DNA of 64,000 nucleotides from an uncultured Lachnospiraceae bacterium (GCA_910588295.1 CAJUQO010000009.1:8261-72260), one strand, 5' to 3'; shown: positions 1 to 10,543, numbered from the stretch's first letter. Made by a program: numbers and translations. The notes: generated by a model not told the origin, from the letters alone.

Positions 1-210
1 ATGCTCGGCGGCCTTTTCATTAAAGGAAGCGCCTCCATGGAAACGTTTGATCAGATCCTGAGATTCCAGTATGGCCAGATCTCTTCGTATGGTCAGTTCG
101 GAGACATTCAGAAGCCGGCTGGCCTCGGCAACGGATACTGTTTTTTTCTCACGGATATGGTTCATAAGTTTTTTTTGGCGGGTTTCGATAATACTTCTTG
201 ACTGGTTCAT
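1..210 (-). CDS. DeoR-family transcriptional regulator, N-terminal part (gene continues past the left edge)
   Basis: Reverse complement of 1-210 reads MNQSRSIIETRQKKLMNHIREKKTVSVAEASRLLNVSELTIRRDLAILESQDLIKRFHGGASFNEKAAEH, a textbook DeoR winged HTH. The ATG is the complement of 208-210. It is missing from the track because no stop lies in the window. The listed 1..201 (+) ORF is its antisense shadow. Confidence 0.8.
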   Translation of the reverse strand, partial: MNQSRSIIETRQKKLMNHIREKKTVSVAEASRLLNVSELTIRRDLAILESQDLIKRFHGGASFNEKAAEH

Positions 211-391
211 ATAGTAGCCCTCATTGTACTGTATTAATAATATGTTTCCGGGAAAAGTATATCTGAATGAATTTGTTAGTTTTCCGGATGATTATGATTA
301 TTCGTTCATAAAACAAGGATAAATGAATTTTTTCAAGAAATCAAGGAAAAACAGCACAAAAATAAATAAATAAAGCTGTTGAAGATGCCAA

Positions 392-420
392 TTGAAACCA
401 AGGACAATAAGTGATATGAT
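392..420 (+). promoter_or_regulatory. putative sigma-A promoter of the ABC/ula-like operon
   Basis: TTGAAA (392-397), 17-nt spacer, TATGAT (415-420), in an AT-rich intergenic region about 110 nt upstream of the SBP start. Confidence 0.4.
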
Positions 421-532
421 TCAAACAGTTCAATTAAACGTTCTAATAAATGGAAGAAAATGGAATATACGAACGTTTAAAAGAAAAAGAAACAATTGAA
501 GCAAACGATTCATGTAAAAGAAAGGGAAAAAA

Positions 533-1702
533 ATGAAAAGAAAAATTCTGAAAAAAGTCATCGGTATCACAGCGGCAGCGGCCATGATGGGAACGCTTTT
601 CGTCGGATGCGGCAGCAGTTCCAGCAGTTCTGCCACTTCCGAAGCGCCGGCTTCTTCCAAAGTATCGGCAGCTTCTGAAGCGCCGGCCTCATCATCGCCT
701 GAAGCATCGGCGGCAGAAACCACACCGGATTCCGGCAAAAAATATAAAATTGCTCTGAGCAATTCCTATATGGGAAATGACTGGCGTCAGCTGATGATCA
801 AGACAGCTCAGGTTGTAGCTGAAAAAGAGCCGTATGCCAGCCAGGTTGAACTGGATATTGTTACCTGTGAAAACACGGCGGAAGCCCAGTCCGCTTCCAT
901 CGACGCTTTGGTTGAGGAAGGCTATGACGCTATTCTGATCGAGGCTTCCTCTCCCACAGCTCTGATTCCGGCCATCCAGAGAGCGCAGGACGCGGGTATC
1001 GTTATCGTTACCTTTGACAATACCGTAGACGCGGAAGGCGTGTATAAAGTAGGTACGGATCTGGCAGACATGAGTGAAGCATGGGCCACATGGCTGGTTA
1101 CCGCCTGCGGAGACGGCGCTAACATCATTATGGATACAGGTATTGCCGGCTCCACTTCCGGAAACATCATGTATGAAGCGGCGAAGAAAGTATTTGATGA
1201 GCATGGTATCAACGTGGTTTCCGAATTTGCCAGCGAGTATGCAGACGGTGTAGGTCAGGAGCAGATCGCTAGTGTGCTGGCCGCCAACGACAAGATTGAC
1301 GGCGTATATGCTCTCTGCTACGCCAATACGGTATACAATGCGTTCACAGACGCCGGCAGAGATCTGGTACCGACCACAAGCTTTAATACCAACATTGGCC
1401 AGTCGATTGCTTTTGATAACAATATGCAGGTGCTGATCGGACAGAATACGCCGGGCCTTGGCGCGGAAGCTATGAAGGTAGCCGTAGACGTATTAAACGG
1501 CGAAAATGTACCGCAGGAAAATCTGGTTAAGGCAGGATTCTTTACCAACGACACATCTGTAGATTTTGGATGGGCAACAACCAAGCTTGAAGAAGGCGTT
1601 ACTTTCTTCCGCGACCTTCCGGACGCATTTGATTTCCCGGCGGTTCCGGCAGATTTCGATCCGCAGGTAACAGCAGAGGAAGTATCCAACTATCAGCAGT
1701 AA
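533..1702 (+). CDS. sugar ABC transporter substrate-binding lipoprotein (RbsB/type-1 PBP-like)
   Basis: Signal peptide plus lipobox LFVGCGSS, followed by a Ser/Ala-rich linker. The body has a periplasmic-binding-protein-type layout (KIALSNSYMGNDWRQ..., DAILIEASSP). It is the first gene of an ABC operon. Confidence 0.85.
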   Translation: MKRKILKKVIGITAAAAMMGTLFVGCGSSSSSSATSEAPASSKVSAASEAPASSSPEASAAETTPDSGKKYKIALSNSYMGNDWRQLMIKTAQVVAEKEPYASQVELDIVTCENTAEAQSASIDALVEEGYDAILIEASSPTALIPAIQRAQDAGIVIVTFDNTVDAEGVYKVGTDLADMSEAWATWLVTACGDGANIIMDTGIAGSTSGNIMYEAAKKVFDEHGINVVSEFASEYADGVGQEQIASVLAANDKIDGVYALCYANTVYNAFTDAGRDLVPTTSFNTNIGQSIAFDNNMQVLIGQNTPGLGAEAMKVAVDVLNGENVPQENLVKAGFFTNDTSVDFGWATTKLEEGVTFFRDLPDAFDFPAVPADFDPQVTAEEVSNYQQ

Positions 1703-1712
1703 GCACCAGGAA

Positions 1713-1741
1713 AAAGCCTGCCGCCTGTGGCGGCGGGCTTT
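1713..1741 (+). terminator. intercistronic stem-loop after the SBP gene (partial terminator or mRNA stabiliser)
   Basis: AAAGCCTGCCGCC-TGT-GGCGGCGGGCTTT is a 13-bp stem with one G.U pair. The U-tract is weak, so this looks like attenuation or stabilisation rather than full termination. Confidence 0.4.
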
Positions 1742-1779
1742 CAAAGTAAATATACAGAAACTTGTGAGAGGAGAAAAGC

Positions 1780-3300
1780 ATGGCAGACTTAGAGATGAAC
1801 CAGATTACCAAGTCTTTCGGCGAAGTAACGGTTTTAAAGGATGTCACTTTACACTGTAATCGCGGTGAAGTGCATGCTTTGCTGGGAGAAAACGGCGCCG
1901 GAAAAAGTACGCTATTGAAGGTGCTCAGCGGTGCACATCTCCCGGACGCAGGAGAAATAAAGCTGTTTGGTAAAAAGGCGGAGATCCGTAATCCCAACGA
2001 TGCAATGCGTTACGGCATTGGCACGGTATACCAGGAACTGTCCGTCATACCGGAGCTGACAGTCAGTGAAAATATTTTTGTGGGGCGGATCCCCAAAAGA
2101 AAAACAGGCATGTTTGACAGAAAAAAGCTGGAAGAAGACACCAGGAAGCTTTTTGAAGAATATGGGATAGATGATATTGACCCGAATGCTAAAGCCCGGT
2201 CACTCTCCCTGTCCCAGAAGCAGATTGTGGAAATCCTGAAAACACTGGCAAAAAACCCCGAGATCATTATTCTGGATGAGGCAACCTCCGCCCTTACGGA
2301 TGACAGAGTTGTATGGCTTTTGGGAGTGGCGAGGAAACTGGCTGACCAGGGCAGGATCGTGCTGTTTATTTCTCACAGAATGGCGGAAATTCAATATGGA
2401 TGTGACATGATTACGATTTTGAGGAATGGTGAGAATTCCGGTGAGGTCAGCGCTAAAGAAATAGATATGGATGATGTTATCAGCAAGATGCTGGGAAGAA
2501 AGATGGCGGGCTATTTTCCGGAGATCACCAGCTATAAAACGGATGATTTGGTGATGCAGGTACGGAATCTGACCTATTTACATGTTCTTAACGGCGTGGA
2601 TCTGGACGTATACCGGGGCGAGGTGCTGGGAATCGGCGGTCTGGCAGGACAGGGACAGGCAGAACTTCTGCAGGCTCTCTACGGCGTGCTGAAAACAAAG
2701 GGAGAGGTCAGGCTGAAGGGAAAAAGCATCCGGCTGCATTCGGTAAAATCCGCTATACGAAACGGTATTGCGCTGATTCCGGAAGAAAGGGCCATTCAGG
2801 GACTGATTTTACGTGATTCCATACGTTATAATATATCCCTTCCGATTCTAAATAAAATCAGCAATCCCATGTGGGTATCCCAGAAGAAAGAATATGCTGT
2901 TGTAGATAAATATATGAAAGAGCTGCAGATCAAAGCCGACAGCCGGGAAATGGCGGCTATCAATCTGTCTGGAGGAAACCAGCAGAAGGTTGTTATGGCC
3001 AAGATTCTTGCCATGGAACCGGAGGTTTTTTTGATGCATGATATTACGCGCGGCGTGGATATAGGAACCAAGAAGGAAATGTTCCATATGGTCCGCGAGT
3101 TTGCCAAAGAAGGCCATCCGGTTATCTTCTTCTCCACGGACGTGGAAGAATTGGTTAACGTATGCGACCGAGTTGCCGTTATGTATGATGGAAAGATCCA
3201 GGCGGATCTGCAGGATCAGGCGCTTACCAGAGAGAATATTATCAAAGCGGCTATCGGAAACAGTGTGGATGATGAAACTGCTGTAAAGGAGGGGGCATAA
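1780..3300 (+). CDS. sugar ABC transporter ATP-binding protein (duplicated ATPase, RbsA/MglA type)
   Basis: 506 aa. Walker A GENGAGKST, signature LSLSQKQ/LSGGNQQK, Walker B IIILDE. The two NBDs are typical of CUT2 importers. Confidence 0.9.
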   Translation: MADLEMNQITKSFGEVTVLKDVTLHCNRGEVHALLGENGAGKSTLLKVLSGAHLPDAGEIKLFGKKAEIRNPNDAMRYGIGTVYQELSVIPELTVSENIFVGRIPKRKTGMFDRKKLEEDTRKLFEEYGIDDIDPNAKARSLSLSQKQIVEILKTLAKNPEIIILDEATSALTDDRVVWLLGVARKLADQGRIVLFISHRMAEIQYGCDMITILRNGENSGEVSAKEIDMDDVISKMLGRKMAGYFPEITSYKTDDLVMQVRNLTYLHVLNGVDLDVYRGEVLGIGGLAGQGQAELLQALYGVLKTKGEVRLKGKSIRLHSVKSAIRNGIALIPEERAIQGLILRDSIRYNISLPILNKISNPMWVSQKKEYAVVDKYMKELQIKADSREMAAINLSGGNQQKVVMAKILAMEPEVFLMHDITRGVDIGTKKEMFHMVREFAKEGHPVIFFSTDVEELVNVCDRVAVMYDGKIQADLQDQALTRENIIKAAIGNSVDDETAVKEGA

Positions 3301-3301
3301 G

Positions 3302-4282
3302 ATGAAGACAGGTAAAAGGTTTAATCTGAAAGATTTTCTGAAGGAAAACTGGATTGCCCTGATTCCCTATGTTATGTTTGTGATCATGTTTGCGGTCATG
3401 GGTGTGTTAAACAGCAGTACGCTCACGCTGCGGTATATTGCCAACAAAATGGACGCGGCATTTTCTCTGATCCTCTGCGCGGCAGGCCAGACACTGGTGC
3501 TTCTTACGGGCGGTTTTGATCTTTCGGTAGGCGGTGTGATTTGCATGACCAACAGTCTGTCGGCATCCCGTATGCAGGATAATCTGGGAAGTATGCTGCT
3601 TTGGGCATTGATCTGTTTGATGATCGGGCTCGGTATCGGTATCTTTAATGGTTATGTTATAGAGAAAACAAAACTGCAGCCGTTTATTGTAACTCTGGCT
3701 GTTCAGTATATCTGTTACGGTGCGGCGCTTCTGATCCTGAAAGTGGACGGCGGCCTTGTGCCGGCTTCCTACATCAGCGGTTTACTGCACAGATTCGGTC
3801 CGATTCCGTTATCCATGATTCTTACTGTCGTATTGATTCTGGCATGGCTGTTTTTCAAAAACACAAAGCCGGGCTTTAGCATCTATGCTGTCGGCAGCAA
3901 TGAAAACGCAGCCCGTTTGAACGGTATCTCCATCCTGAGAACAAAAATGCTGGCTTACGGTCTTTCCGGCGCTTTTGCGGCTCTGGCCGGTCTGTTTCGG
4001 ACGGCGCAGGTGGCCAGTGGTTCACCTACAGCCGGTGCGGATTTCGTCATGATCTCCATTTCATCAGCGGTGATTGGAGGTACGGCGCTGACCGGAGGTT
4101 CCGGCGGAATGATAGGAACTGTGGTAGGCGCGCTGGTACTTCGCACGATCAGCGACCTGCTGGTATTTATGAAAGTTTCTTCATACTGGTCTTCCCTTGT
4201 GCAGGGTGTACTGCTCATTCTCGCGGTGGCAGCCAGCGCCTATGGCTCCATGTTGAAACGAAGAGGAGGTGCGGCTTCATGA
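3302..4282 (+). CDS. ABC transporter permease (RbsC/branched-chain-type)
   Basis: 326 aa and highly hydrophobic. RbsC-like motifs (LLTGGFDLSVGG, YAVGSNENAARLNGI). It follows the ATPase stop directly. Confidence 0.85.
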   Translation: MKTGKRFNLKDFLKENWIALIPYVMFVIMFAVMGVLNSSTLTLRYIANKMDAAFSLILCAAGQTLVLLTGGFDLSVGGVICMTNSLSASRMQDNLGSMLLWALICLMIGLGIGIFNGYVIEKTKLQPFIVTLAVQYICYGAALLILKVDGGLVPASYISGLLHRFGPIPLSMILTVVLILAWLFFKNTKPGFSIYAVGSNENAARLNGISILRTKMLAYGLSGAFAALAGLFRTAQVASGSPTAGADFVMISISSAVIGGTALTGGSGGMIGTVVGALVLRTISDLLVFMKVSSYWSSLVQGVLLILAVAASAYGSMLKRRGGAAS

Positions 4283-5226
4283 ATGCAAGAGCAATGTTCA
4301 AAAAGAATTTTTCTGTGATCATGACCTTTTTGATTGCCATAGCCCTTTTTGCCGTGATCTCTGTCATGAGGCCGGGCTATGCGAACGTCAATAATATCCG
4401 CGTGCTTTGTATCACAGCGTCTTTTCTCGGCCTGACGGCCATGGGGCAGATGGCGGCTATATTAACCGGCGGTATGGATCTGTCCATCCCCTGGATGTTC
4501 ACCATCGCCGCGTTTCTTACGGCCAGTCTCACGAAGGGGGAGGACGGCAGGCTGTTTTACGCGATACCGGTGGTTTTGCTGGTGGGCGTGCTTATGGGCG
4601 CGTTTAATGGCTTTGGAATCGCGTATGTCGGTATCGCGCCGGTAATCATGACCATGGCGTCCAATATCATTTTTCAGGGGCTTCTGGTGGGCCTTACCGG
4701 AGGGACTCCCGGAGGAACGGCGCCAAAGGCGCTGAAATCCTTTGCCAATGGTTCTGTGGGCCCGGTTTCGGCCGCGTTGATTTTCTGGATCATCGTATCT
4801 GCGGTTTTTTACATTTTGATCGCCAGATCGCCCTATGGCCGTAAGCTATATGCTATAGGAAACAGTGATACCGTAGCTATTTTCTCCGGTATCAATGTCA
4901 AACTGACCAGAGCCAGCGCCTATATGATTTGCGGATTTTTTGCCGCGCTGGCCGGTATTCTGTACTCCGGACGTGTAAGTCAGCTATATCTGGGTATGGG
5001 AGATCCGTACCAGATGGATTCTGTTTCCGCAGTAGCCATCGGCGGCGTTTCGCTGTTGGGCGGGTCGGGCAGCTACATCGGCGTGATCGGCGGCGTTTTT
5101 GTCCTGGTTATGCTTAACGGCGTACTTACCGCGCTGGGATTTGAACAGAGCGTGCAGAAGATCGTATTTGGTGTAGTACTTTTCCTGGCGGTGCTGTTAT
5201 CCAGCCGGAGGCAGAAAAGCAGGTAA
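4279..5226 (+). CDS. ABC transporter permease (second RbsC-like subunit)
   Basis: 315 aa, with an ATGA overlap onto the previous gene. Motifs ILTGGMDLSIP and YAIGNSDTVAIFSGINV. Confidence 0.85.
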   Translation: MNARAMFKKNFSVIMTFLIAIALFAVISVMRPGYANVNNIRVLCITASFLGLTAMGQMAAILTGGMDLSIPWMFTIAAFLTASLTKGEDGRLFYAIPVVLLVGVLMGAFNGFGIAYVGIAPVIMTMASNIIFQGLLVGLTGGTPGGTAPKALKSFANGSVGPVSAALIFWIIVSAVFYILIARSPYGRKLYAIGNSDTVAIFSGINVKLTRASAYMICGFFAALAGILYSGRVSQLYLGMGDPYQMDSVSAVAIGGVSLLGGSGSYIGVIGGVFVLVMLNGVLTALGFEQSVQKIVFGVVLFLAVLLSSRRQKSR

Positions 5227-5258
5227 ACATATAAAGTAATTAAGAAAGGGGATTAGAT

Positions 5259-6770
5259 ATGGCAAAGAACGGGGCGGCCTGCGGCTTTCCGTATGTGGAC
5301 ATTCTTAACGGACAGCAATTGAACGCGGTGCGGTCAGGGGTATATGACATTCTGAAAAACACCGGTGTAACTGTACAGAACGAAAAGATGCGGCAGGTTC
5401 TGGCTGAGTTTGGCTGCCGTGTGGATCATGCCCGGGAAAGGGTGTATTTTGACCAGGAAGTGGTGGACCGGGCTCTGGCGCTGGCGCCTAAGGGATTCAC
5501 GGTTACTGCCAGAGACCAGGCAAACAATGTCCTGCTGCAGCCGGGAAAAACGACACAGTTTATCAATGCCTGCGGAACAGCGATCTGGCGTGAGGATAAA
5601 CAGGAATCAGCCGTTCCTTCCAGAAAAGAATTCTATGAATATATGAGGCTGTTGGATGCCCTTCCGAATCTGGATTTCCATAACTGCTTTCCTTTCTTTG
5701 GTTTCGATAAAGTGCCGGAGTGCATGAAGCTGATTGAATCCGTAGCGGCAAAATACCGGGTATCGACAAAGGCCCAGATTGAGGGGACCGTATTTGATAA
5801 TTACCGGTTTACGACAGAAATGGCCAAAGCCATGGGCGTGGATCTGTGCCAGATCGTCAATTCGGCAGCCCCGCTGACTTATTTTACGGAGACCGCGGAC
5901 CAGATCTTTAACTACACGCAGGCAGATCTGCCCTTTCACTTTGCCGCAGGGCCCACCAGGGGACTGACCAGCCCCATGAGCGCGGCGGGATCGGTGATCT
6001 CCAACAACGCCGAGTGCCTTGCCGGACTTATCATGGCTCAGGCGGTAAAACCGGGAGCAAGAGTCTGGATGAACAGTATGATCATGACTCCGAATATGGC
6101 GACGGGCAAACCGGCTTTCGGAGATATCGGAAACACGTATACCGATATGGCGTTTAACCAGTACTGGAGAAGCTGCGGTATACCCTGCTGGTCAAACGCG
6201 GCGTCCTGGAGCAGTTCAAAAAATATAGATTATCAGGCCGGTTATGAACAGACCATGGCGCTGATGGGGCAGGTCCTTAGTGGATCAACGGTTATTTCCT
6301 ATCAGGGCGGCATGTACGCGGAACTCTACGCCAGTCCGTTAAAGGCTGTCATTGATGACGACGTGGTAGGCATGGTGAAGCGGCTGATGAGGGGCATTGA
6401 TACTTCGGAAGAAGGATTATCTCTGGAATTGATCCAGGAGACGGGCCCGATTCCCGGTTCCTTTATGGATTCTGATGAGACGCTTCTCGGATGGCGGGAG
6501 GAGTGTTATATTCCCACGGTATCTTCAAGAACAGGATATGAAGAATGGAAAAATGGTGGCAAAAAAGATGTGATTCAAAATGCGGGCGAGAGAACAGAAA
6601 AGCTTTTGAAGGAACAGAAGGTGCAGACGCTGCCGGCGGATCAAGAACAGGCGCTAGAAGACATCCTAAATGACGCCCGCCAGTATTATTATAAAACAGG
6701 AAAAATTACGGAAGAAGAATGGAAGGCGTATCAGGAAGATATTCATTCACCGAATTATCCGTTTGCTTGA
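5259..6770 (+). CDS. MttB-superfamily (trimethylamine methyltransferase-like) protein, non-pyrrolysine type
   Basis: 503 aa. The N-terminus (LNGQQLNAVRSGVYDILKNTGVTVQNEKMRQVLAEFGCRVDHARERVYFDQEVVDRAL) matches the MttB family pattern as I know it. The ORF is uninterrupted, with no in-frame TAG. Confidence 0.7.
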   Translation: MAKNGAACGFPYVDILNGQQLNAVRSGVYDILKNTGVTVQNEKMRQVLAEFGCRVDHARERVYFDQEVVDRALALAPKGFTVTARDQANNVLLQPGKTTQFINACGTAIWREDKQESAVPSRKEFYEYMRLLDALPNLDFHNCFPFFGFDKVPECMKLIESVAAKYRVSTKAQIEGTVFDNYRFTTEMAKAMGVDLCQIVNSAAPLTYFTETADQIFNYTQADLPFHFAAGPTRGLTSPMSAAGSVISNNAECLAGLIMAQAVKPGARVWMNSMIMTPNMATGKPAFGDIGNTYTDMAFNQYWRSCGIPCWSNAASWSSSKNIDYQAGYEQTMALMGQVLSGSTVISYQGGMYAELYASPLKAVIDDDVVGMVKRLMRGIDTSEEGLSLELIQETGPIPGSFMDSDETLLGWREECYIPTVSSRTGYEEWKNGGKKDVIQNAGERTEKLLKEQKVQTLPADQEQALEDILNDARQYYYKTGKITEEEWKAYQEDIHSPNYPFA

Positions 6771-6787
6771 ATTAAGGAGGAAAGGGC

Positions 6788-8266
6788 ATGTATGTGGTGG
6801 TTCTGGATGTGGGCACATCCAGTATGCGGGGGATACTTGCCGATGAACAGGGCCGGTTCCTGGCTTTGAAACAGATAAACTATTGCCCAAGATACGTGAC
6901 GGATCGCTGGATCGAGCAGGATGCCGCCGATTTTGATTCGGCGCTGACGGCCATAGGAAAATCCATGGCGGAGGCGGCGAAGGAACATCATATACAGATT
7001 TCCTGCATATCTGTTACCTCCCAGCGGTCGGCGGTTATTCCTGTGGATCGGTCGGGGGATCCGTTGATGCCTGCCGTGATGTGGCAGGACACCAGAAACG
7101 CAGATATCGTGAAACGGCTGAAGGCGCAGGATGATCTTGTTTTTTCCATCAGCGGAGCGGGCGTTAATACGGTGTTTTCCGGATCAAAAATGACCTGGAT
7201 TAGAGAAAGGTGCGGGGATGTATACAGAAAACTGTACAAATATGTGACCATACCCTCTTATCTGATGTTTCGGATGACGGGATCATACTTCATGGATTAT
7301 ACCTATGCCAGCCGGTCAAATCTGCTGGATCTGAAAGAAAAAAGGTGGAGTACAGAGCTTCTGGAACTGTTTCGTGTGAAAGAGGAACACCTGTGTACGC
7401 TTATCGAACCGGGAATGTCTGTTGGGACGGTAACCCGGGAGTTTGCAAACGCTACGGGGCTTACGCAGGGGATACCGGTAGTGTCGGCCGGCGGCGACCA
7501 GCAGTGCGCGGCTGTGGGACAGGGCGCTTTTAAGGAAGGCGTGGTATCCGTTGTTGCGGGAACGGGGGCGTTCCTTGTTACTGCCTGCGACAGTTTTCCT
7601 CAAAATCTGAAAAAAGATCTTACCTGCAATTGTTCGGCAGTTGCGGGAAAATACATTCTGGAGGCAAATGTACTGACCTGTGCCTCTGCATTCGACTGGT
7701 TCAGGAGAATGTTTTACAGTGATCCGCAGGATTATGCCCTGATCAGTCGGGAACTGGCAGAAGCCTGTCTGGAAAACAGCGATGAGATTGTCCTCCCGTT
7801 TTTCCAGGGAAGAAGCTTTGGAGGCTGGAATCCGGATGCAAAAGCCTATTTCGGCAATATCACGCTGTCAACGACCCGCGGGGAAATGCTGAAAGCATTG
7901 CTGCAGGGGATTTTCCTGGAAGTTTATAACGGAATTTTGGCTTTTGAAGAATATGTACCTGTGAGAGAGGCTTATATCAGCGGCGGTATGACAAAAAGCG
8001 GCGTGATGAACCAGCTGCAGGCAGACATATACGGAATCCGGCTGCATCGCGGCAAAAACAGTGAATCAACGGCATTGGGAGCGTTGTTGTCGGCGCTGAC
8101 GGCGATGGGCGCATATCCGGATATGGATACTGCTTTTATGGCAGCGGGCCCGAAAAATGAAGATATTTATGTGCCGGACAGAGAAAAAACGGCGCAATAT
8201 GAAAAAGTTAGAGTTGAAGTTAACCGGCTGTACGGAAAGATTAATTCCAAGGAGAAGAAGAGATGA
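6788..8266 (+). CDS. FGGY-family carbohydrate kinase
   Basis: 492 aa. N-terminal [12 protein letters not shown] phosphate-1 motif, then [13 protein letters not shown] and GGMTKS motifs typical of the xylulo/glycerol/L-xylulose kinase family. Confidence 0.85.
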
Positions 8267-9366
8267 GTAAAATCAATGATATTACCAGAGAAAGCTGGAT
8301 CATGAGTACATTTCCGGAATGGGGAACGTGGCTGAATGAAGAGATAGAGAATGAAGAGGTAAAACCGGGAACCGTAGCCATGTGGTGGCTTGGCTGTACC
8401 GGTATGTGGTTCAAAACTCCCGGCGGATGCAACATTACGGTGGATCTTTGGGCAGGAAATGGAAAACGTTCCCACGGTAACGGAAAAATGAAAGCCGGTC
8501 ACCAGATGGCCAATATGGCCGGCGTGCGGAATATGCAGCCGAATCTCAGAGCGGTTCCCTTTGTCATTGATCCATTTGCCGTCAAACAGGTGGACGCGGT
8601 ACTGGCGACCCATTATCATCAGGACCATATGAGCGCGGAATATGCAGCCCATGTGATTAAGAGCGGGATGACTACCGTGGACGAAAAGGGCAAAGAAATC
8701 CCGGTTCCGTTTATTGGACCGAAAAAATCCGTAGAGCTCTGGGAAAGATGGGGCGTTCCCGCAGACCGCTGCATCACGGTCAGACCGGGAGACGCCATAA
8801 AAATAAAAGATATAGAGATCGTGGCGCTGGATTCTTTTGACAGAACCTGTCTGGTGACTACGGATTCCACCGATGCGGACAGAGAAGAACTGACCGGAAG
8901 ACTGCCGGACGATATGGATGAGAAAGCGGTGAATTATCTGATTAAGACTCCCGGTGGAAATATTTATCACAGCGGGGATTCCCATTATTCCATTTATTTT
9001 GCCAAACATGGCAAGGATTACGATGTGGATGTGGCATTTGGCTCTTATGGAGAGAATCCGGTGGGTATCCAGGATAAGATGACTTCCTGCGATATCCTCC
9101 GCATGGCGGAAGCGCTGCGCTGTAAAGTAGTTATACCGATCCATTACGATGTATGGTCGAATTTTATGGCAGATATTAATGAAATCAAGGTGCTTTATGA
9201 GATGAAGAAAGATCGGCTGAATTATCAGTTCCATCCTTTTTTCTGGGAAGTGGGAGGCAAATATGTATATCCCACGGATAAAGATAAGAGAGCCTATCAC
9301 CATTACAGAGGATTTGATGACTGCTTTGAAAATCCGCAGAATATTCCTTTCAGATCATTGCTGTAA
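8263..9366 (+). CDS. ulaG: L-ascorbate-6-phosphate lactonase UlaG-like MBL-fold hydrolase
   Basis: 367 aa. [44 protein letters not shown].., ..HYHQDH.., ..YHSGDSHYS.. and C-terminal RGFDDCF...PFRSLL are collinear with E. coli UlaG as I recall it. ATGA overlap with the kinase gene. Confidence 0.85.
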
Positions 9367-9391
9367 CCGCGGGCAGAGGGAGGCAGATATT

Positions 9392-10441
9392 GTGAAAGCA
9401 TCAAAAAAAGTGATTGGACAGTTGAGGAAATGTTATTCGGTAGCTCCCTTATGTTATCAGGGAAAAGATCATTTTCTTGTGGCGGCGGAAAAACAGGATC
9501 CCTGCTATCTGTTTGATATGGAAGGAAATAAAGAAGAGACTGTGTGGGAAGGCCCGGGCGGCGTCATGAGTATGGTACAGGTTCCCGATACGGACGGCGT
9601 TTTTCTGGCTACCAGAAAGTTTTATTCCCCTAATGACTCCAAAGAAGCAAGTATAGTCGTTGTAACGCCGGAGGGGAAGAATCGCTGGCAGGTGAAAACT
9701 CTGGTGAAATTGCCTTTCGTTCATCGGTTTGATATTCTGACCAGAAACGGAGTGCGTTATCTGATCGCCTGTACTCTGAAATCGAACCATGAATATAAAG
9801 ATGACTGGAGATTTCCGGGCAGGGTATATGCTGCGGTGCTGCCGGAGGATCTGCGGGATTTTGATGATAAAAATCAGCTAGAGCTTCAGGTAATCAAGGA
9901 GGATATGCCAAGAAATCACGGGTATTACCGAGATCTGCAGGACGGTGTGGAAACTGCTTTGATTTCCGCGGAATCGGGCATTTTCCGTTTTGCGCCGCCG
10001 ATGCGGACGGGAGGAGAATGGCAGATCGAGAAGGTGAAAGACAGCGCGGCCAGCGACGCGGTTATGGTGGATCTGGACGGTGATGGTGAAAAGGAGCTGA
10101 TCTATCTTGCGCCTTTCCACGGAAATGAGATACATATCTGCCGCAAAACGGAAAAAGGTTATGAGAGCGTCTATTGTTATGATCGCGCGGAATTTGCCCA
10201 TGCCATTTATGGCGGCGCTCTCTGTGACAGGCCGGCAGTATTGATCGGACATCGTAAGGCGGACCAAGACCTGCTGGCATTTACGTATTGCAAAGATACG
10301 GGGGGATACGTCTGTGATGTGATTGATCATGGCTGCGGCCCGGCTAATGTCTACAAATTCACTGTGGATGGCAGGGATATGGTGGTGGCGGCCAACCGTG
10401 AAACCGATGAGATTGCTATGTACACAGCGTTTTGTGAATAA
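9392..10441 (+). CDS. conserved hypothetical cytoplasmic protein, possible FG-GAP/beta-propeller-like fold
   Basis: The track ORF 9263.. overlaps ulaG. GTG at 9392 sits 8 nt after the RBS GAGGGAGG (9376-9383). No signal peptide. A DLDGDGEKELI motif resembles an FG-GAP/VCBS calcium loop. Function unknown. Confidence 0.6.
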   Translation: MKASKKVIGQLRKCYSVAPLCYQGKDHFLVAAEKQDPCYLFDMEGNKEETVWEGPGGVMSMVQVPDTDGVFLATRKFYSPNDSKEASIVVVTPEGKNRWQVKTLVKLPFVHRFDILTRNGVRYLIACTLKSNHEYKDDWRFPGRVYAAVLPEDLRDFDDKNQLELQVIKEDMPRNHGYYRDLQDGVETALISAESGIFRFAPPMRTGGEWQIEKVKDSAASDAVMVDLDGDGEKELIYLAPFHGNEIHICRKTEKGYESVYCYDRAEFAHAIYGGALCDRPAVLIGHRKADQDLLAFTYCKDTGGYVCDVIDHGCGPANVYKFTVDGRDMVVAANRETDEIAMYTAFCE

Positions 10442-10482: not shown

Positions 10483-10511
10483 TTGACAACCACCCTTTCC
10501 CATGCTATAGT
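10483..10511 (+). promoter_or_regulatory. putative promoter of rpmG-secE-nusG
   Basis: TTGACA (10483-10488), 17 nt, TATAGT (10506-10511). It overlaps the left arm of the terminator above. Confidence 0.55.
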
Positions 10512-10543
10512 TGTATAACGACATGGGAAAGGGTCTTTTTTTT
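10493..10543 (+). terminator. rho-independent terminator of the upstream operon
   Basis: Perfect 12-bp stem CCCTTTCCCATG / CATGGGAAAGGG with a 17-nt loop, then TC plus T8. Confidence 0.7.

Follow-up and report, generated by a model that had tools for sequence, protein, structure and literature searches.

We analysed a 64,000-nt stretch of the genome of an uncultured Lachnospiraceae bacterium (GCA_910588295.1, CAJUQO010000009.1:8261-72260; C9:8261-72260 below), referred to here as the window. At its left end the gene of a DeoR-family regulator is divergent from one operon of eight plus-strand genes (533-10441), which encode a CUT2 ATP-binding cassette (ABC) importer, an MttB-superfamily protein, an FGGY kinase, UlaG and a last protein that we call X. 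We put at roughly 0.6 the probability that this is a catabolic operon for L-ascorbate (vitamin C) that would work independently of the phosphotransferase system (PTS) under the divergent DeoR regulator. It is apparently a variant of the known ascorbate pathway, in which the ABC importer, the kinase and the MttB-family protein would replace PTS uptake and X would replace the decarboxylase. The original prediction, made from the sequence of the window, had described this arrangement of genes, and domain and model matches found every one of them in its place. Its central idea, that an ABC importer plus an FGGY kinase would stand in for the ascorbate PTS, gains support from orthology, from the swapping of modules among related loci and from phylogeny.

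We infer the following steps. The CUT2 importer would bring in either unphosphorylated ascorbate or, as is likelier, a small derivative of it, which the MttB-family protein would process inside the cell, our best guess being the transfer of a methyl group to a corrinoid protein encoded elsewhere in the genome. The FGGY kinase would phosphorylate the C6 hydroxyl, giving L-ascorbate-6-phosphate, the usual product of the UlaABC PTS. UlaG would open the lactone to 3-keto-L-gulonate-6-phosphate, and X would decarboxylate this compound to L-xylulose-5-phosphate in place of UlaD. Orthologues of UlaE (contig C10) and UlaF/AraD (contig C15) would then complete the route to D-xylulose-5-phosphate.

The window UlaG aligns over its full length with E. 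coli UlaG (2wyl; 549 bits, 63% identity) and is, judged by sequence, unambiguously a true orthologue of the L-ascorbate-6-phosphate lactonase. It had been called a clear UlaG orthologue coupled to the kinase by an ATGA; the comparison with characterised members and the NF008688 match agree with the first statement, and the overlap of kinase stop and ulaG start does read ATGA. Also as predicted, there is no PTS gene, UlaD, UlaE or UlaF in the window. None was found either in the 8.2 kb to the left of it, a side on which a search for UlaD/E/F-like genes had been suggested. This left flank encodes other genes (a PAS-domain protein, GntR, a ManD-family dehydratase, a zinc-dependent alcohol dehydrogenase, a KduD-like short-chain dehydrogenase/reductase (SDR) and a 259-aa metallo-beta-lactamase (MBL) hydrolase), which rules out a conventional ula cluster just past the window edge.

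For UlaABC and UlaD the absence extends to the assembly (3.3 Mb, 99 contigs, 93% complete). Lachnospiraceae queries for UlaA, UlaB and UlaC gave no tblastn match in the whole of it at E<=1e-4, the E. coli UlaABC proteins gave none at E<=1e-3, and neither did E. coli UlaD and SgbH. The single gene of the genome with the orotidine monophosphate (OMP) decarboxylase fold (PF00215) is PyrF. The remaining steps of the pathway are encoded, although unlinked to the operon: the UlaE orthologue at C10:10860-11711 (NF009689, 369 bits, cut-off 200; 48% identity to E. coli UlaE) and the UlaF/AraD orthologue at C15:40162-40848 (62% to E. coli UlaF). On C10 the UlaE gene ends another sugar locus (C10:1-16000, L005), composed of a PfkB kinase, a CUT2 importer, DeoR, a rhamnulokinase-like FGGY, a PepQ-like protein, a heme-degrading-domain protein and a shikimate-dehydrogenase-like protein, and is followed by rpe, fsa and a split tkt.

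UlaG and protein X across Clostridia

Among 201 Lachnospiraceae genomes, one per genus, UlaG was found in 21 and X in 23. All 19 genomes in which UlaG is intact and on a usable contig also encode an orthologue of X, while the four genomes with X alone have just distant paralogues (27-33% identity). In 18 of the 20 loci that were fetched X lies within 10 kb of UlaG. Eight of the loci are of a PTS type, with the order UlaG-EIIA-EIIC-IIB-DeoR-UlaE-X-AraD; ten have no PTS and carry instead an FGGY kinase and a transporter, which can be a CUT1 ABC importer, a CUT2 ABC importer or a 459-aa polytopic membrane protein. Genome G193 combines one PTS-type and one kinase-type locus, and both have a UlaG and an X of their own. 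In Tyzzerella sp. An114 and Clostridium sp. Marseille-P2415 the PTS-type cluster is longer (UlaG, EIIA, EIIC-GAT, EIIB, DeoR, UlaE, X, followed by HAD, rpe, araD, tal and tkt), and UlaD is absent from both clusters. The Marseille-P2415 locus (L002, 2084-6402) contains a tandem duplicate of ulaG and EIIA; its two copies of UlaG do not differ, and behind the first there are short fragments in place of EIIC.

In a tree of 38 UlaG proteins those linked to a PTS and those linked to a kinase were interleaved, and the supported branches force at least five switches between the two types. The nearest relative of the window UlaG is a PTS-linked one with 91% identity. Both observations indicate that the substrate of the lactonase is probably the same in PTS-type and kinase-type loci. 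Judged from this gene content, UlaG-X is a fixed pair across Clostridia, which is joined either to a UlaABC-type PTS or to a transporter and an FGGY kinase.

The distribution of X is complementary to that of UlaD. Sixteen of the 20 other UlaG-positive Lachnospiraceae have PyrF alone or no gene of the OMP decarboxylase family, and the remaining four have extra copies of this family far from the ula locus. Outside the Lachnospiraceae, in samples taken at class and phylum level, ten UlaG loci with usable flanks have X and no UlaD (five of the PTS type, two of the kinase type and three partial). Only two loci there have a canonical UlaD (52-60% identity to E. coli UlaD), both without X, and in both UlaD is found directly before UlaE as in E. 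coli, the neighbourhood that X has elsewhere. No locus sampled holds both X and UlaD. The L-xylulose-5-phosphate needed by UlaE and UlaF arises only by decarboxylation of the UlaG product. With UlaD absent and X and UlaD complementary in distribution, this makes X the candidate decarboxylase, and we consider it fairly likely, from the hole in the pathway and from this distribution, that X is the missing decarboxylase of 3-keto-L-gulonate-6-phosphate. X would then be a probable non-orthologous replacement of UlaD across Clostridia and, if this reading holds, would have displaced the OMP-decarboxylase-fold enzyme in nearly all of the ascorbate clusters sampled in this class.

Searches of X in Pfam, NCBIfam and PDB sequences assigned it to no family; its close homologues number more than 1,800, none of them named, and 680 clusters at 50% identity were counted. 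The AlphaFold model is a seven-bladed beta-propeller (pLDDT 92.8, pTM 0.91) with invariant residues near the starts of the blades (HRFD 111-114, NHGY 175-178, FHG 242-244, H270, HR 287-288 and NRE 335-337). The recurring His, Arg, Asp and Glu would fit a central site for a metal and a phosphate. The only enzyme among the top Foldseek matches was the Zn-dependent propeller of aldos-2-ulose dehydratase (TM-score 0.74-0.77, a match of fold only). A paralogue of X with 48% identity is located elsewhere in the genome (C40:26754-27791, L006), amid MatE, DUF1002 and NlpC/P60 genes, and X-like genes without UlaG are found in four other genera, indicating that the propeller family is not limited to ula loci.

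We think it very unlikely, though, that X is something other than a decarboxylase, for example an isomerase, a keto-acid chaperone or a regulator, with the carboxyl group removed by a paralogue of ribulose-phosphate 3-epimerase (RPE) beside UlaE or lost slowly and spontaneously. RPE and UlaD share the ribulose-phosphate-binding barrel superfamily, and several ula clusters contain RPE-family genes, as does the neighbourhood of UlaE on C10. The propeller itself also speaks for caution, as X has 11-12% sequence identity to aldos-2-ulose dehydratase and most of its top structural matches are non-enzymatic propellers. However, RPE is absent from many UlaG-X loci (e.g. L017, L020, L027, L043 and L054), all of which have X, and it shows nothing like the mutual exclusion of X and UlaD. 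Pentose-phosphate flux accounts for its presence beside tal and tkt, and the many invariant His, Arg, Asp and Glu of X are typical of a catalytic site; a decarboxylase remains our preferred role for X.

The kinase, the MttB-family protein and the imported compound

The original prediction had left room for the kinase to fall in the xylulokinase or glycerol kinase clades. It scored below the cut-offs of both models (XylB 269 bits, cut-off 380; GlpK 240 bits, cut-off 590), and its nearest relatives with solved structures are glycerol kinases at 188 bits. We built a tree with the window kinase, 13 other ula-linked kinases, the seven FGGY paralogues of the genome and E. coli XylB, LyxK, GlpK, AraB, RhaB, FucK and LsrK. 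In it all 14 ula-linked kinases fall together in a single clade (SH-aLRT 100), apart from all the E. coli references, whereas the GlpK (C19) and XylB (C26) orthologues of the genome group with the E. coli enzymes. Together, the model cut-offs (for XylB and GlpK) and the tree exclude a xylulokinase, a glycerol kinase or LyxK. By phylogeny and gene order the window kinase belongs to a dedicated FGGY subfamily, which accompanies UlaG-X. We propose that the window kinase is an L-ascorbate 6-kinase; its action is placed before that of UlaG because the window UlaG is nearly unchanged from PTS-linked UlaG, which takes ascorbate-6-phosphate.

The order of the two steps could also be the opposite, with the unphosphorylated lactone opened by UlaG or by spontaneous hydrolysis, the kinase acting on 3-keto-L-gulonate and X decarboxylating the product. 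LyxK of the E. coli yiaK-S system is an FGGY kinase that phosphorylates 3-keto-L-gulonate, and we know of no FGGY kinase that acts on a lactone, a point that counts against an ascorbate 6-kinase. Nevertheless, we regard this order as improbable: the window kinase shares no more than 23% identity with LyxK and branches apart from it, a separate LyxK-like gene (35% identity) exists on C4, a kinase taking the open-chain acid would make a lactonase unnecessary, and the PTS-linked UlaG with which the window protein shares 91% identity must use the 6-phosphate, the two types being interleaved on the tree. The LyxK-like gene (C4:76040-77545) adjoins a CUT2 ATPase, a permease and DeoR; this locus may serve L-xylulose or 3-keto-L-gulonate in a route distinct from that of the window operon.

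In the MttB-family protein the PF06253 match covers residues 9-470, with no in-frame stop and no pyrrolysine, and the solved MttB and MtgB are only distant relatives (about 137-140 bits). Its subfamily is a small one of 94 clusters at E<=1e-50. Relatives with 51-94% identity were found directly before FGGY-UlaG-X in every context examined, often with UlaE next, and this order holds even where the substrate-binding protein (SBP), the kinase and X fall to 27-42% identity and the regulator is of the SorC type. A chance neighbour was rejected, given that the order is kept down to 51% identity in distant genomes with other transporters and regulators, and on this conservation the MttB gene is an integral part of this variant of the operon. 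Further away, a relative with 44% identity sits between a corrinoid protein and a pterin-binding methyltransferase, a canonical methyl-transfer system, and another with 45% adjoins an amino-acid-type ABC importer.

Neither the operon nor the window contains a gene for a corrinoid protein or a methyl-acceptor methyltransferase. Genes for small corrinoid proteins lie on contigs C2 and C12, the one on C12 next to a further MttB paralogue, and the five other MttB-type genomes tested also encode a corrinoid protein. A want of this partner, which would have ruled out methyl transfer, was thus rejected for all six genomes, a point of little weight since such proteins are common. In Eubacterium limosum, MttB-family genes lie apart from those of MtqA and of the shared corrinoid protein MtqC (PMC8604678), and MthB acts only on the phosphocholine made by the kinase MthK (PMC12155760); both precedents make an orphan MttB gene beside a kinase less odd. 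That the window MttB strips a methyl group from a methylated derivative is our tentative guess, with the odds somewhat against it.

Two other loci contain genes that touch on this subject. In the same genome, C56:6000-22570 (L014) encodes an MttB (345 bits), an SDR, an FAD-linked oxidase, an FGGY kinase, a 210-aa protein, a BCCT transporter, the alpha and beta subunits of an electron-transfer flavoprotein and a second FAD oxidase, and may be a kinase-assisted quaternary-amine pathway like that of MthK and MthB. In another genome, an EIIC-GAT gene and a gene of the URO-D family are found on the opposite strand next to an MttB-type locus (L049, 433-3575). The URO-D family includes methylcobamide methyltransferases, and this gene could be a hint to the methyl-acceptor partner, or a coincidence.

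In sister loci of the kinase type the position of MttB is taken by other genes: a glycoside hydrolase of the GH29 fucosidase family in three, a GH31 glycosidase in two and a nucleoside-hydrolase-like gene in one. In one more (L032) the position is empty, and the locus consists of a CUT2 ABC importer, UlaE, AraD, X, UlaG and a divergent FGGY-DeoR pair. The swapping of these enzymes at one position suggests, as the simplest reading, that kinase-type loci would import intact conjugates of ascorbate and free the ascorbate inside the cell. PTS Enzyme I (PF05524) is encoded in this genome and in every kinase-type genome tested, so a lack of PTS machinery was rejected as the reason for the kinase route. 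Import of conjugates would explain why a cytoplasmic kinase is used even so.

Several facts weigh against the operon function proposed here. With an assembly that is 93% complete and split in 99 contigs, a UlaD or UlaABC gene of this genome could have been missed. Enzyme I is present, and the kinase route is thus not accounted for by a lost PTS machinery. The original prediction did not know the route as a described ascorbate or lactone pathway, and the literature searched contains no ascorbate kinase, no ula cluster devoid of UlaD and no sugar-linked MttB. We also know of no obvious natural methylated or quaternary-amine derivative of ascorbate that could serve as substrate of MttB. Finally, the characterised substrates of MttB-family enzymes are all quaternary amines (PMC8604678, PMC12155760).

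This last fact also favours a substrate other than ascorbate, such as L-gulono- or L-galactono-lactone or a methylated or quaternary-amine sugar acid, with UlaG and X recruited to the route encoded in the left flank. There, GntR, ManD, the zinc dehydrogenase (IdnD-like), the SDR (KduD/IdnO-like) and the 259-aa MBL hydrolase constitute an operon (C9:3019-7701, L001) convergent on the DeoR gene. This block looks like a route from L-idonate or L-gulonate (lactone) to 2-keto-3-deoxygluconate and might be linked to breakdown products of ascorbate. In two other genomes (L011 and L012) the ManD block is syntenic with the ula-like operon, and a KDPG aldolase gene follows X. Besides, the SBP falls below all NCBIfam equivalog cut-offs and matches no characterised ligand class; its nearest solved structure (4pe6, 107 bits) bears a name without function and is uninformative about the ligand. 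Against this, UlaG shares 63% identity with the E. coli enzyme and 91% with a PTS-linked one, there is no UlaG clade specific to kinase loci, UlaE and AraD, which depend on L-xylulose-5-phosphate, accompany X and UlaG, and most MttB-type loci (L013, L049, L050 and L053) have no ManD operon. We therefore hold a non-ascorbate substrate to be quite unlikely, and an ascorbate-type compound to be the better reading.

Taken all together, an FGGY L-ascorbate 6-kinase, X replacing UlaD and MttB acting on a methylated ascorbate-type compound, with the GH29, GH31 and nucleoside-hydrolase-like sister loci as systems that import and deconjugate natural conjugates of ascorbate, make a combination that we consider rather unlikely to be right in every part.

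Operon layout and expression

The features of the operon are collected in Table 1. The gaps between consecutive genes are of 77, 1, -4, 32, 17, -4 and 25 nt, and each of the eight genes is preceded by a Shine-Dalgarno sequence. For X the start is GTG at 9392, with GGGAGG ahead; ATG at 9263 was rejected, as it would overlap ulaG, while the GTG has the Shine-Dalgarno sequence and the homologues are 345-350 aa long. The SBP, the fused double ATPase and the two permeases found by domain search make up the full set of a CUT2 importer. The regulator has AgaR as its best NCBIfam match (152 bits, cut-off 260), reaches 102 bits with the UlaR model, whose cut-off is 244, and shares 24% identity with UlaR of E. 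coli; by these scores it is a member of the DeoR family and probably no UlaR equivalog. The -10 box of the promoter-like site and the downstream ACAGTTCAA are kept in two syntenic genomes.

Table 1 Features of the putative ascorbate operon at the left end of the window
Feature	Position	Strand	Evidence and remarks
DeoR-family regulator, N-terminal 70 codons	1..210	-	HTH_DeoR and DeoRC; full gene C9:7691-8470, 259 aa
Promoter-like site	392..420	+	TTGAAA-17-TATGAT, extended -10 TG; sole good candidate
Lipoprotein SBP of CUT2 (monosaccharide-type) ABC importer	533..1702	+	Peripla_BP_4 144 bits; lipoprotein signal
ABC ATPase, two fused ATP-binding domains	1780..3300	+	Domain matches
ABC permease 1	3302..4282	+	BPD_transp_2
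ABC permease 2	4279..5226	+	BPD_transp_2
MttB-superfamily protein, 503 aa	5259..6770	+	PF06253 232 bits
FGGY kinase, 492 aa	6788..8266	+	FGGY_N 198 bits, FGGY_C 77 bits
UlaG, 367 aa	8263..9366	+	NF008688 631 bits (cut-off 306)
Protein X, 349 aa, cytoplasmic	9392..10441	+	Seven-bladed beta-propeller model; without Pfam or NCBIfam family
Intrinsic terminator, end of operon	10492..10543	+	13-bp stem ACCCTTTCCCATG/CATGGGAAAGGGT, 17-nt loop, T8

The locus was found intact in many mouse-gut metagenomes. In mouse-gut runs labelled as RNA-seq or metatranscriptomic, contigs with more than 99% identity span the junctions of permease 2 and MttB, MttB and FGGY, FGGY and UlaG, and UlaG and X. The depth is low and carry-over of DNA is possible; these contigs fit co-transcription in vivo. 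A mouse isolate (G015 C20, L016/L009) lacks the SBP, DeoR and the greater part of the left-flank operon, and its truncated ATPase abuts ManD; MttB-FGGY-UlaG-X-UlaE is intact. In this strain the importer may have decayed or another importer may be used.

Significance and comparison with known systems

Textbooks cover ascorbate fermentation only for the Ula pathway with its PTS, as found in enterobacteria and lactic acid bacteria. In a survey of 2011 the genes ulaABCDEF were reported to accompany every UlaG orthologue (PMC3219644). In the Lachnospiraceae sample, ula loci are found in about one tenth of the genera, no locus examined has UlaD, and about half have no PTS. If the assignments are true, they would give a name to a sizeable protein family (X), define a new specificity of FGGY kinases and provide the first functional context for an MttB homologue in a sugar operon; if MttB does act on a methylated ascorbate-type compound, its superfamily would extend beyond quaternary amines. 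Lachnospiraceae are a dominant gut family. The reading would also suggest that gut commensals scavenge conjugates of vitamin C besides the free vitamin, which would bear on the availability of vitamin C to the host and on the annotation of microbiome pathways.

With the ula regulon of E. coli the window operon shares UlaG, the divergent DeoR-family regulator and, in the genome, the UlaE and UlaF orthologues, and the chemistry after ascorbate-6-phosphate is presumably the same. It differs from it in having an ABC importer and an FGGY kinase and no UlaABC PTS, a propeller beside UlaG and no UlaD, an MttB gene inside the operon, UlaE and UlaF on other contigs and a regulator below the UlaR cut-off. 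The E. coli yiaK-S system (YiaMNO TRAP, YiaK, LyxK, SgbH, SgbU and SgbE) resembles the proposed route in the import of an unphosphorylated ascorbate-related compound and its phosphorylation in the cytoplasm by an FGGY kinase. However, the window kinase is outside the LyxK clade, the transporter is ABC and not TRAP, the lactonase is kept, and the locus has neither a YiaK-type reductase nor SgbH.

Also close are the PTS-type ula clusters of Lachnospiraceae and other Clostridia, such as those of Tyzzerella sp. An114 and Clostridium sp. Marseille-P2415, with UlaG at 85-91% and X at about 62% identity and equally no UlaD. In contrast to the window operon, these keep EIIA, EIIC-GAT and EIIB, unite UlaE and AraD, often together with rpe, tal and tkt, in a single cluster, and have no ABC importer, FGGY kinase or MttB. 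With the methyltransferases of the MttB superfamily (MtgB, MtpB, MtcB, MtyB and MthB) the window protein shares the full-length PF06253 fold and the lack of pyrrolysine; its gene is separate from a corrinoid partner as are the MttB genes of E. limosum, and it is paired with a kinase as in MthK/MthB. Unlike them, it belongs to a sugar-acid operon with a monosaccharide-type ABC importer and not a BCCT or betaine transporter, and there is no evident quaternary-amine substrate. As for X, the N-terminal domain of the aldos-2-ulose dehydratase of Phanerochaete chrysosporium (4a7k, 4a7y and 4a7z) is also a seven-bladed propeller. This enzyme is metal-dependent and acts on keto-sugars via enol intermediates. 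It is a three-domain fungal protein of 880 aa that catalyses dehydration and isomerisation, whereas the reaction proposed for X is a decarboxylation.

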